Origin: Nitrospirota bacterium
GTDB taxonomy: Bacteria > Nitrospirota > UBA9217
DNA: 64,000 nucleotides
Assembly (NCBI GenBank): GCA_963740085.1
Contig: CAVUCU010000004.1
Coordinates: forward strand, 641,996 to 705,995
Reading direction: 5' to 3'
Shown: one piece after another, positions 8,721 through 9,594 of the stretch
How positions within the stretch are numbered: the first letter of the stretch is position 1
Layout: each line of letters begins with the position of its first letter
Translations under genes and position numbers: made by a program
Notes under the pieces: model-generated
The model's database searches: none
What the model was told of the DNA's origin: nothing
What the model saw: only the letters and a program-made list of their open reading frames with translations

Positions 8721-9077
8721 TTAATGGGAGAAGCCAGCCACTGTACTTGTCGGTCCGGTAACTGGATCTGGCCAAGTCGAAGTAGTAGCACCTACTGCGT
8801 TAGGAGATTGGTCAACCCAAGCTTTCTTCCATATCCCATTGTCTGTATCCCACATCTGAAACTCATAACCCGCTGCTGTAGCAGCTGAAGCATGGGCTGA
8901 TGAGGCCGCATAATTAACATCATCGGAGCTTACTACGACAGATACACCCGTTGATGGGATATATTTTGCTCCATTGATTGTCGTGCCCGTGGGAGCCGTG
9001 AGGAGTTCCACCGCAAAAGCCGGTGCGGCAATAGCAATTGCCATCACAACTATCATTATAACCAGTAATTTTTTCAT
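8721..9077 (-). CDS. secreted protein, PilA-C-like companion of the truncated pilin
   Basis: Signal peptide MKKLLVIMIVVMAIAIAAPAFA. It lies immediately downstream of the short pilin gene, the same arrangement as the Geobacter pilA-N/pilA-C pair (established knowledge). Confidence 0.55.
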   Translation of the reverse strand: MKKLLVIMIVVMAIAIAAPAFAVELLTAPTGTTINGAKYIPSTGVSVVVSSDDVNYAASSAHASAATAAGYEFQMWDTDNGIWKKAWVDQSPNAVGATTSTWPDPVTGPTSTVAGFSH

Positions 9078-9117
9078 ATGCTTGCAACTCCTTTCGAAAA
9101 ATATTATGTTGATTTTA

Positions 9118-9324
9118 TTAAAAAGTTGGATACTTCTGCAGATCAGCCTGCCCTGCTTCCATCGTGGTTCTTAGGTTTCTTAAGTCGGTCTCAGCGCTTG
9201 CGTTATATGCCTTAACACGATACGCAGAGAACTGCGGGATGGCGATGGCCGCCAGAATGGCGATGATGGCCACCACGATCAGGAGTTCGATGAGGGTAAA
9301 ACCTTTGTTATTTCTGGTCTTCAT
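9118..9324 (-). CDS. pilA: truncated type IVa pilin of the Geobacter PilA (e-pilin) type
   Basis: KGFTLIELLIVVAIIAILAAIAIPQFSAYRVKAYNASAETDLRNLRTTMEAGQADLQKYPTF contains a class III signal (G|FTLIELL) and a mature length of about 60 aa. It is near-identical in its N-terminal half to G. sulfurreducens PilA as I recall it, and the aromatics F1, F24, Y27, Y32, Y57 are conserved. Confidence 0.85.
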   Translation of the reverse strand: MKTRNNKGFTLIELLIVVAIIAILAAIAIPQFSAYRVKAYNASAETDLRNLRTTMEAGQADLQKYPTF

Positions 9325-9435
9325 ACTTTAACCTCCCTTGAATTTTTTTTAACAGCATTGTGTGACTACTCTGATAAAGACAACTTAATGGAAGCTTCCC
9401 CCCTTTCATTGGCATTTATATTTCACCGTATTAAT

Positions 9436-9451
9436 AGCATGATGCATGCCA
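9436..9451 (-). promoter_or_regulatory. sigma54 (-24/-12) promoter candidate upstream of pilA
   Basis: The minus strand reads TGGCATGCATCATGCT, with GG and GC at the canonical 10-nt spacing of the TGGCAC-N5-TTGCW consensus. It sits about 110 nt upstream of the pilA ATG. Geobacter pilA is RpoN/PilR dependent (established knowledge). Confidence 0.45.
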
Positions 9452-9594
9452 ATTATAAACCTATATTTATCATAATGTTATATTAAGCAATTATGATATT
9501 GGATCGAAATGTGTCAGTTGCTCGTGACATAAATTGTCACCTGACTGCACTTGACTAACGATGTATCTAATGGTAACATCCCTCACTTTTAAAA

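Follow-up and report, generated by a model that had tools for sequence, protein, structure and literature searches.

Does the short prepilin gene on a contig of a Nitrospirota bacterium belong to a split pilin system of the kind known from Geobacter, and would its product form a conductive filament? We analyzed a 64-kb stretch of this contig (hereafter, the window) in which a gene for a 68-amino-acid (aa) prepilin is directly followed by one for a 118-aa secreted protein. We consider it likely that the two genes form an operon for a split type IVa major pilin, with a helical stalk (PilA-N) and a separately secreted head (PilA-C), organized as in Geobacter and driven by a PilR/sigma-54 promoter. 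The pilin gene, its partner, the promoter element, and the terminator all lie on the (-) strand (Table 1).

Table 1. Features of the pilin locus, listed in the direction of transcription
Feature	Position	Strand	Basis
Candidate PilR-type upstream activating sequence, inverted repeat GTGACA-N5-TGTCAC (core TGACA-N5-TGTCA, 9525..9539)	9524..9540	(-)	Sequence
A third half-site, TGACA, 8 nt past the inverted repeat	9512..9516	(-)	Sequence reading
Sigma-54 type -24/-12 element TGGCATGCATCATGCT	9436..9451	(-)	Pattern match, conservation in relatives
Putative 5' untranslated leader, ~100 nt	9325..9424	(-)	Conserved sequence; presumed transcription start
pilA-N, 68-aa prepilin ORF	9118..9324	(-)	ORF, leader, Pfam/NCBIfam, PDB phmmer
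Spacer pilA-N/pilA-C, 40 nt, with RBS AGGAG at 9092..9088, 10 nt before the pilA-C ATG	9078..9117	(-)	Sequence reading
pilA-C-like gene, 118-aa precursor; Sec signal peptide of ~22 aa (..APAFA/VELL), mature beta-sheet domain of ~96 aa	8721..9077	(-)	
Intrinsic terminator GAGGGTTGGT-GTTG-ACCAACCCTC, then CC + T7	8649..8682	(-)	Hairpin scan, conservation
ABC-2 permease	7814..8605	(-)	Pfam
TPR-like protein, 282-308 aa	6972..about 7817	(-)	Pfam
ABC ATPase	6060..6935	(-)	Pfam

The pilin and its filament

An initial interpretation made from the letters alone (the sequence-only reading) had described a Geobacter-type truncated pilin with a type IV prepilin leader ending KG/FTLIELL and a mature chain of about 60 aa, and both the leader and the assignment hold. 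The pilA-N product has the features of a class III signal peptide (MKTRNNKG/FTLIELLIVVAIIAILAAIAIP), namely, a basic leader running to Gly and a hydrophobic helix of ~20 residues; the leader comprises 8 aa, and the mature chain comprises 60 aa starting at FTLIE (Phe1, Glu5). Pfam N_methyl matches it at 3.2e-11 (42.8 bits; cut-off, 21.2) and TIGR02532 at 39.5 bits (cut-off, 16.3), and a phmmer search of the PDB returns 7tgg_A (1.3e-26), 9egp_A (2.5e-23), and 2m7g/6vk9 (5.8e-23), all labeled “Geopilin domain 1.” Counted on the phmmer alignment, 45 of 58 residues are identical to G. sulfurreducens PilA. Judged by its sequence, the window pilin is a Geobacter-type truncated PilA-N: GSU1496-like, ~60 aa when mature, and without a globular domain. 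Motif scans in all six frames of the 64-kb window yielded no second prepilin.

The resemblance extends to the arrangement of the locus. Like GSU1496/GSU1497 of Geobacter sulfurreducens (PDB 6VK9, 7TGG) and the G. metallireducens system (9EGP), the window combines a ~60-aa, all-helix mature pilin with a gene, next in the same operon, for a beta-sheet partner exported by Sec; in both systems TGACA-N5-TGTCA lies upstream of a sigma-54 type promoter, and ABC-2 transporter genes follow the pair. An adjacent GSU1497-like gene is expected for GSU1496-like pilins (PMC5174107), and the window pilin has such a neighbor. The two systems differ in host (Nitrospirota here, Desulfuromonadales in Geobacter), in the absence of pilR, pilS, and pilB/T/C next to the window genes, and at residue 51, where the Phe of Geobacter is Gln.

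Assembly would proceed as in the solved filaments. A prepilin peptidase encoded elsewhere would remove the 8-aa leader and N-methylate Phe1; PilA-C, exported by Sec, would dock on the short C-terminal end of PilA-N; and a type IVa machine, likewise encoded elsewhere, would polymerize the 1:1 PilA-N/PilA-C heterodimers, giving a pilus-like filament of the kind seen in PDB 6VK9, 7TGG, and 9EGP. The filament may serve in attachment, biofilm formation, or secretion rather than as a wire. A six-frame motif scan of the 64-kb window, including the PilB/T Walker A motif, found no pilB, pilT, pilC, pilD, or pilMNOPQ motifs; since the window has neither machinery nor regulator genes (for the latter, see below), assembly and regulation rest on genes outside those seen.

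The same heterodimer could instead form a secretion pseudopilus, a short periplasmic piston resembling the type II endopilus that pushes surface proteins or polysaccharide out of the cell, which we regard as possible though rather unlikely. A secretion or sensing role for PilA-N/C pili is allowed by one review (PMC12954529), ABC-2 exporter genes follow the operon amid envelope and polysaccharide genes, and the pilin scores against the NCBIfam GspG model TIGR01710 (2.8e-11, 43.6 bits), although far under its cut-off of 88.85 bits. The pilin shares with GspG a prepilin leader and a hydrophobic N-terminal helix, but GspG has its own globular domain and belongs to a gsp operon, which the window lacks, and the pilin resembles type IVa PilA far more than it does GspG. 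Furthermore, images show PilA-N/C filaments as 7-8 nm pili that had been sheared off cells (PMC12954529), and in the 64-kb window we could identify neither cargo nor genes of a secretion system.

Promoter, leader, and terminator

The split-pilin reading includes a specific mode of expression, for which the sequence-only reading had offered a sigma-54 candidate with exact GG-N10-GC spacing about 110 nt upstream of the pilin. That element is present (TGGCAT-N5-ATGCT, with its 3' end 111 nt from the pilin ATG) and resembles the sigma-54 consensus YTGGCACG-N4-TTGCW (PMC2725144). Because the pattern occurs twice in the 64-kb window (0.64 occurrences expected) and two or more copies turn up in 12 of 100 shuffles, the match alone is not beyond chance; the argument rests on conservation in related loci. 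Five distinct relatives show no change in the -24/-12 cores, TGGCA and TGC: the 6 variable columns are all located elsewhere in the element. If 6 of the 16 columns varied at random, they would spare the 8 core positions with a probability of C(8,6)/C(16,6) = 0.0035.

To this element we add a PilR-type repeat. The core TGACA-N5-TGTCA has its sole match in the 64-kb window at this site (0.05 expected), and among relatives its half-sites are invariant and its spacer is variable; the third half-site is kept in 5/5 distinct Sulfobium-like upstream regions. The repeat also occurs upstream of pilin genes in 27 of the 96 pilin loci fetched, which span several phyla. Its start lies 88 bp ahead of the -24 element, within the range of about 80-150 bp expected for an activator site. 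The corresponding distance is 88-89 bp in five pilA loci of Pseudomonas, where, as in the window, the repeat precedes an element TGGCAT-N5-xTGCT situated just before the pilin gene, and 111 bp in those Desulfuromonadales loci that we examined. The likeness ends with the promoter: the pilins of Pseudomonas are of full length, with mature chains of 121-139 aa in the loci fetched, and no second gene encodes a head domain, whereas the window pilin is split. It is established that PilR and sigma-54 are needed to express pilA in Pseudomonas (PMC6058289), and G. sulfurreducens pilA is likewise RpoN and PilR dependent (PMC2725144). The invariant -24/-12 core, together with a repeat at a Pseudomonas-like offset of 88 bp, points to a PilR/sigma-54 type promoter for pilA-N/pilA-C. 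Transcription would depend on sigma-54 together with a PilR-type activator that occupies the repeat, the genes for both lying outside the window: scans of all frames for the GAFTGA motif and the RpoN box detected no rpoN, pilR, or pilS within the 64 kb. We found no direct literature statement of rpoN in the Sulfobium-like lineage.

The upstream signal might alternatively be an ordinary sigma-70 promoter in AT-rich DNA, the GG-N10-GC spacing being coincidental. We judge this unlikely, even though two sigma-70-like sequences, ATAACA-18-TATAAT (9481..9452) and CTGACA-16-CATAAT (9517..9490), each match at 10/12 positions, the sigma-54 pattern by itself is not significant in the window, and both rpoN and an activator are absent from it. 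The TATAAT is lost in relatives, which read TTAATTATGG; sigma-70-like matches in the region do not exceed those in shuffles (5 versus 3.5 +/- 1.5); TGGCA and TGC are invariant around a variable spacer; and a sigma-70 promoter would make it hard to explain the fixed 88-bp offset to a repeat that Pseudomonas pilA loci share.

The putative 5' untranslated leader contains a conserved block (~9386..9416) with the Shine-Dalgarno-like sequence AAGG(A/G)GG(T)GAAGCTTCC, and the true ribosome-binding site of pilA-N is GGGAGG at 9337..9332 (-). RNAalifold predicts a small hairpin of 12 pairs in the block, but as it has no compensatory changes, we do not claim an RNA element; an Rfam scan of positions 8500..9700 (E<=10) placed no family near its gathering score. 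At the other end of the operon, the GC-rich hairpin and T-run reported after the PilA-C-like gene are real and conserved, lying just outside the segment (8721-9460) to which they had been assigned. The stem (8682..8659) has 10 bp, including 6 GC pairs, and a 4-nt loop, and begins 39 nt past the pilA-C stop, and the T-run occupies 8656..8650; the 86-nt region containing the terminator folds at -24.5 kcal/mol. The terminator is kept in five loci compared (L002, L006, L011, L012, and L013), with one compensatory change of G-C to A-T (L013).

Aromatic residues and the conductivity question

The sequence-only reading had called the pilin an e-pilin based on aromatic residues at F1, F24, Y27, Y32, and Y57. 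The residues themselves are all present, as is F60, giving 6 aromatics in 60 residues by direct count (10.0%), but the conductive connotation is not supported. Of F24, Y27, Y32, F51, and Y57, the five aromatic positions of G. sulfurreducens, the window pilin keeps only four; its position 50 is Gly, and position 51, Phe in G. sulfurreducens, is Gln in the window pilin and in the pilins of all Sulfobium-like relatives. Residues 33-56 form a 24-aa gap without aromatics, from Y32 to Y57. Published in silico criteria for e-pilins ask for at least 9.8% aromatics, with aromatics at positions 1, 24, 27, and 32 and/or 57, an aromatic at 50 and/or 51, and aromatic-free gaps of <=22 aa (10.1101/668343). 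The window pilin agrees with these in density and at positions 1, 24, 27, 32, and 57, and departs from them at 50/51 and in its gap, for which reasons, along with the description of solved PilA-N/C pili as poorly conductive, the e-pilin label is unsupported.

A conductive pilus would be a polymer of PilA-N alone, a thin nanowire with stacked aromatics that serves electron transfer to the outside or between species, and the 118-aa protein would act only as a periplasmic chaperone that stabilizes the short pilin and stays outside the filament. The conserved F1, F24, Y27, Y32, and Y57 and the 10% aromatic density are compatible with this; mutation of GSU1497 in G. sulfurreducens is reported to abolish PilA expression (PMC5174107), and the existence of e-pili is upheld by part of the field (PMC9207759). 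We nevertheless find it decidedly doubtful, as G50 and Q51 are clade-wide and the gap exceeds the screening limit of 22 aa (10.1101/668343), and as filaments with PilA-N seen by cryo-EM (PDB 6vk9, 7tgg, 9egp) hold PilA-C 1:1 and are called poorly conductive in a 2026 review (PMC12954529). In addition, no open reading frame with two or more CxxCH motifs, which would indicate a multiheme cytochrome, was found within the 64-kb window.

The partner protein, the downstream genes, and the range of hosts

Whether the pilin is truly split depends on its neighbor, which the sequence-only reading had described as a PilA-C-like, signal-peptide protein encoded directly after the pilin. The position is as described, 40 nt past the pilin stop with an AGGAG ribosome-binding site (31-40 nt in relatives), and the 118-aa protein has no Cys and opens with MKK, a hydrophobic stretch, and a signal peptide ending AFA/VE. 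In all 11 related metagenome loci, a 68-69 aa pilin precedes a partner of the 118-aa type, and more widely, among truncated pilins of Desulfuromonadales, Nitrospirota, Nitrospinota, and other lineages, the next gene encodes a signal-peptide protein of 106-169 aa (mostly 106-143).

The relationship to PilA-C emerges from profiles. Single partner sequences are too divergent: phmmer searches of the PDB gave no PilA-C chain for the window partner at E<=10 (only kringle-domain noise) and no match for two Desulfuromonadales partners, so a profile was needed. A profile of 12 such partners retrieves “Geopilin domain 2” from the PDB (9egp_B, 6.5e-14; 7tgg_a, 4.7e-10; 6vk9_D, 1.8e-5), and hhalign joins the window partner family to this 12-partner profile with a probability of 97.9% (E 3.5e-13), or 91.6% (E 8.3e-7; 46% identity across 39 columns) when signal peptides are removed. 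The similarity is confined to the N-terminal half of the mature domain, and the A1 profile gave no significant hhalign match to one PilA-C sequence of G. metallireducens. Pairwise BLASTP aligns the 118-aa protein with GSU1497 itself at 30% identity over 112 aa (E 1e-4). The protein has the layout expected of PilA-C, in which a Sec signal peptide leads into a domain of ~100 aa, an antiparallel beta-sheet like the head of a full-length pilin, and its AlphaFold2 (AF2) predicted fold best matches PilA-C, a match not fully independent of the sequence evidence because the AF2 alignment held Geobacter-type PilA-C sequences. On profile and predicted fold, we conclude that the 118-aa protein is a remote, divergent PilA-C homologue, as had been proposed; the result that the sequence-only reading named as refuting, an unrelated downstream ORF, is not what we see. 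That it is an unrelated small secreted protein lying next to the pilin by chance is highly improbable, notwithstanding the empty single-sequence PDB search, the lack of a Pfam or NCBIfam family (only subthreshold noise from DUF2574, Flg_new, and lactococcin), and the lack of any Foldseek match in the PDB.

Within PilA-C, the window partner belongs to a small, divergent subfamily of 9 clusters with 48-100% mutual identity and ~30% at best to other PilA-C proteins. It differs from the latter in an extra aromatic-rich YEFQMWD segment and in the absence of the usual C-terminal G-W-x motif, and its aromatics are Y39, Y56, Y71, F73, W76, W83, W87, W102, and F116. With 903 representatives at 50% identity (E<=1e-3), PilA-C is a sizeable family, and none of the 82 members listed has a precomputed Pfam domain; a new family model would therefore be justified.

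Beyond the terminator, the order permease, TPR-like protein, ATPase after pilA-N/pilA-C matches that of four Desulfuromonadales loci (L017, L018, L020, and L025), with 45-65% amino acid identity. ABC transporter genes also follow the pilin in Myxococcus xanthus (pilA-pilGHI; PMC6060248) and in the Geobacter xapD/GSU1501 region (PMC4974642), to which we liken the window genes by position. Lying past a strong terminator, the trio is probably transcribed separately from the pilin pair. The region around the operon is rich in envelope and polysaccharide genes. From gene order and identity, the pilin pair plus ABC-2 genes looks like a cassette common to Nitrospirota and Desulfuromonadales; GC content around the operon carries no foreign-DNA signature, so recent transfer is unsupported and the cassette idea comes down to synteny and identity. 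A bolder proposal is that a laterally shared cassette of pilA-N/pilA-C and ABC-2 genes gives Sulfobium-like, sulfate-reducing Nitrospirota of soils and sediments a Geobacter-style filament for extracellular or interspecies electron exchange or for component export, with the aromatic-rich PilA-C replacing the lost position-51 aromatic; we think this improbable.

The closest named partner protein is that of Candidatus Sulfobium mesophilum (80% identity), and cluster mates at >=90% identity are named Nitrospirota bacterium. An identical pilin is also encoded on a contig of 2.57 Mb. The pilA-N/pilA-C pairing also occurs in metagenome-assembled genomes of other Nitrospirota and of Nitrospinota and in Desulfobacterota lineages outside Desulfuromonadales. 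Split PilA-N/PilA-C pilins have so far been characterized, and their filaments solved, only in Geobacter; a metagenome survey concluded that truncated pilins are confined to a “Deltaproteobacteria cluster” of pilins (10.1101/668343), and our literature search returned nothing linking Sulfobium or Nitrospirota to truncated pilins. The locus adds a new host, a Sulfobium-like and sulfate-reducer-like Nitrospirota, to a split-pilin system already known, and leaves the picture of how such pili function unchanged. Sulfobium-like Nitrospirota are now seen to have the whole pair of genes together with its promoter architecture and terminator, and in the debate over nanowires the locus offers a testable natural variant without an aromatic at position 51.

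The truncated pilin and its partner

The product of pilA-N is, as the sequence-only reading had it, a 68-amino-acid (aa) prepilin, in which a basic 8-residue leader ending in Gly precedes Phe1, Glu5, and a hydrophobic helix, leaving a mature chain of 60 aa. It scores over the cut-off against both Pfam N_methyl (3.2e-11) and TIGR02532. Among all PDB chains, the top matches are three entries named "Geopilin domain 1" (7tgg_A, 1.3e-26; 9egp_A, 2.5e-23; 2m7g/6vk9, 5.8e-23), with ordinary full-length pilins matching only at 1e-10 and weaker, and 45 of 58 mature residues (counted from the printed alignment) are identical to those of Geobacter sulfurreducens PilA. 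Judged by these sequence comparisons, the protein is a Geobacter-type truncated PilA-N.

Directly after the pilin gene comes the expected signal-peptide protein. Its N terminus (MKK, a hydrophobic stretch, and APAFA/VE) has the standard form of a Sec signal peptide, and, with no Cys, the protein is not a lipoprotein. This 118-aa protein alone matched no Pfam or NCBIfam family and no PDB chain. Among 5.8 billion proteins, its direct family comprises nine clusters at 90% identity, which are 48 to 100% identical to the query; one of them, at 80% identity, bears the name Candidatus Sulfobium mesophilum. A gene for a 68- to 69-aa N_methyl pilin precedes the partner gene in every contig of this family with upstream sequence, and an ABC-2 permease gene lies 3' of it wherever the contig reaches far enough.

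To bridge from this partner to Geobacter, we fetched loci encoding relatives of the pilin. Truncated pilins (mature chains of 52 to 65 aa) are present in Desulfuromonadales, two other Nitrospirota MAGs, one Nitrospinota MAG, and several other Desulfobacterota, and most of those in the fetched loci have, within a few tens of nucleotides 3', a gene for a signal-peptide protein of 106 to 169 aa (most 106 to 143 aa). A profile of twelve such partners matches the PDB chains named "Geopilin domain 2" (9egp_B, 6.5e-14; 7tgg_a, 4.7e-10; 6vk9_D, 1.8e-5), and these partners are therefore PilA-C proteins. Profile-profile comparison links the window partner's family to them with a probability of 97.9% (E 3.5e-13) or, with signal peptides removed, 91.6% (E 8.3e-7), at 46% identity over 39 columns that span a common T-x-I-G-G..(Y/F)-x-P-S-x-x-V...Y-x-A-x-S-x-H motif; in pairwise BLASTP, the window partner and GSU1497 (G. 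sulfurreducens PilA-C) align over 112 residues at 30% identity (E 1e-4). A template-free AlphaFold2 model from 82 family sequences has six short strands (pLDDT 78), a result not fully independent because the alignment held Geobacter-type sequences. We conclude that the window partner is a divergent PilA-C, which upholds the proposed relationship. Three features set it apart from the rest of PilA-C: an additional aromatic-rich YEFQMWD segment, a C-terminal half that profiles do not align, and, in all but one member of its family, the absence of the G-W-x C terminus that most of the others have. The wider PilA-C family, taken at 50% identity, counts 903 representatives at E<=1e-3, of which 133 reach E<=1e-10 and the best 150 are 99 to 181 aa long; a precomputed Pfam domain was found in 0 of 82 family members.

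Promoter, leader, and terminator

Taken by itself, the sigma-54 pattern is not significant, with two matches in the 64-kb window versus 0.64 expected. The proposed element is nevertheless present and, in five distinct relatives, reads TGGCA(T/C)G(C/T)(A/G)T(C/A/T)(A/G)TGC(T/A), with TGGCA and TGC invariant and all six variable columns outside the cores; six columns drawn at random from 16 would all avoid the 8 core positions with a probability of 28/8008 = 0.0035. It is this comparative evidence, not the pattern count, that counts for the predicted element. The second match (TGGCACTTTGGCTGCT, 30882..30897, minus strand) lies inside a 349-aa ORF, about 280 nt 5' of the next gene's start. Sigma-70-like hexamers also occur in the AT-rich upstream stretch, but they are not kept in relatives.

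The core of the upstream inverted repeat, TGACA-N5-TGTCA, occurs once in the window (0.05 expected). Of the 96 loci that were fetched, 27 carry it 5' of a pilin gene; they come from Pseudomonas, Desulfuromonadales, Acidobacteriota, Nitrospirota, and other taxa (named among them: L014, L018, L020, L024, L025, L033, L037, L039, L040, L044, L046, L063, L065, L074, L075, L076, L089, and L090). With ten bases specified, chance alone would give an estimated ~0.5 occurrences in 495 kb. The -24 element lies 88 bp from the repeat start in the window and in every one of its relatives, and 88 to 89 bp from it at five Pseudomonas pilA loci (element TGGCATGG(G/C)CT(G/A)TGCT), whereas Desulfuromonadales loci L014, L018, and L020 have TGGTCTTGA(A/T)ATTGC at 111 bp. 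TGTC-containing sites are recognized by Pseudomonas PilR, and the repeat looks like a near-universal, putative PilR operator. Together, the conserved element and the repeat at a fixed offset argue for a canonical PilR/sigma-54 pilin promoter. In G. sulfurreducens, the pilA promoter, mapped by 5'-RACE, is RpoN dependent and PilR regulated (PMC2725144). Scans of every frame of the 64-kb window gave no GAFTGA activator and no RpoN box, nor any PilB/T ATPase or second prepilin; a PilR-type regulator and the pilus assembly machine are presumably encoded outside it.

Within the predicted 5' leader, a conserved block contains a near-perfect Shine-Dalgarno-like AAGG(A/G)GG(T)GAAGCTTCC some 70 nt ahead of the actual start and can also be made out in L027, a more distant Nitrospirota locus. 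The block has no compensatory base changes and no Rfam match, and no conserved small ORF comes after it; it may act as a standby site or bind a protein.

The strong terminator, which falls just outside the interval originally assigned to the operon, lies in an 86-nt region that folds at -24.5 kcal/mol; hairpin and T-run are kept in five related loci (L002, L006, L011, L012, and L013), the last with a compensatory change (GGGTT/AACCC to GGATT/AATCC). Every item of the sequence-only observation (pilin, partner, sigma-54 element, and terminator) is thus recovered, and the conserved promoter and terminator delimit a predicted transcription unit of promoter, ~100-nt leader, pilA-N, pilA-C, and terminator.

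Features of the pilin operon and its surroundings
Feature	Position	Strand	Details
pilA-N	9324..9118	-	MKTRNNKG, then FTLIELLIVVAIIAILAAIAIPQFSAYRVKAYNASAETDLRNLRTTMEAGQADLQKYPTF
pilA-N ribosome-binding site	7 nt ahead of ATG	-	GGGAGG
pilA-C-like gene	9077..8721	-	118 aa; 40 nt 3' of pilA-N, after AGGAG site
Sigma-54 element (candidate)	9451..9436	-	TGGCATGCATCATGCT; GG-N10-GC spacing; 3' end 111 nt before ATG
Inverted repeat	9524..9540		GTGACA-N5-TGTCAC; upstream of sigma-54 element; half-sites invariant in relatives, spacer variable
Third TGACA	8 nt after inverted repeat		Upstream of pilA-N; whole repeat region 9512..9540
Leader block	~9386..9416	-	
Terminator	39 nt after pilA-C stop codon	-	GAGGGTTGGT-GTTG-ACCAACCCTC, then CC + T7
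ABC-2 permease, TPR-like protein, ABC ATPase	6060..8605	-	Beyond terminator
Amidohydrolase, two radical-SAM CofH_C proteins	9595..13010	+	Futalosine/menaquinone-pathway-like; divergent from pilin promoter region
Membrane sensor	4157..5539	+	4HB_MCP, HAMP, GGDEF (diguanylate cyclase type)
CDP-glucose 4,6-dehydratase	36819..37946		
PST-family flippase	50689..51978		
O-antigen ligase	55801..56967		

Neighboring genes and other pilin loci

The permease, TPR-like, and ATPase genes follow pilA-N/pilA-C in the same order in Desulfuromonadales loci L017, L018, L020, and L025 at 45 to 65% aa identity, which is unusually high across phyla and suggests a shared cassette; related ABC trios also accompany full-length pilins elsewhere. 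The arrangement recalls pilGHI of M. xanthus (PMC6060248) and xapD (GSU1501), an exporter gene of Geobacter whose locus tag places it a few genes past pilA (PMC4974642). The TPR-like ORF is listed at 308 aa and overlaps the permease gene; in relatives, its product is called at 282 aa. The membrane sensor is encoded just past the ABC trio in the opposite orientation, and relatives L002 and L006 keep the divergent amidohydrolase/CofH_C arrangement. Envelope and polysaccharide genes abound in the window (440..3508 and ~28000..62000); besides the CDP-glucose 4,6-dehydratase, flippase, and O-antigen ligase, they encode a nucleotidyl transferase, a heptose kinase of RfaE-like type, and a heptosyltransferase. 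GC content around the operon is unremarkable, and several window proteins have cluster mates named Nitrospirota bacterium.

Two Geobacteraceae/Desulfuromonadales MAGs, L015 (2076..2312, 2387..2719) and L016 (2491..2799, 2992..3204), have two tandem truncated pilin genes, both with mature products of 60 aa, before a single PilA-C; the upstream paralogue has IPIFRDYTLRGY in place of IPQFSAYR after the helix. Betaproteobacterial MAGs L080 (3001..3630) and L066 (61..246) encode shorter pilins (mature 52 to 53 aa), that of L080 followed by a 140-aa signal-peptide protein.

Pilus or nanowire

The split PilA-N/PilA-C system is already known; the new details here are a different host lineage, a divergent PilA-C subfamily, and a gene pair that stands apart from pilSR and pilBTC. 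Literature searches on the topic found nothing linking Sulfobium or Nitrospirota to truncated pilins.

The aromatic residues on which the e-pilin claim was based (F1, F24, Y27, Y32, and Y57) are indeed retained, with 10% aromatics overall, but the conductive reading fares poorly: G50, Q51, and a 24-residue aromatic-free stretch fail two published screening criteria (10.1101/668343), and no multi-haem ORF lies near the operon in the window. Q51 occurs throughout the Sulfobium-like clade, but F/Y is retained at 50-51 in two other Nitrospirota pilins. All solved PilA-N-containing filaments (6VK9, 7TGG, and 9EGP) also contain PilA-C, and in a 2026 review, the 7- to 8-nm PilA-N/PilA-C pilus is described as a poor conductor that may function in sensing or secretion (PMC12954529), a view disputed by others (PMC9207759). 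Given the composition of the solved filaments, the failed criteria, and the lack of a nearby multi-haem ORF, we regard a nanowire as improbable and favor a heterodimeric PilA-N/PilA-C type IVa pilus or pseudopilus that would act in attachment, biofilm formation, or secretion.
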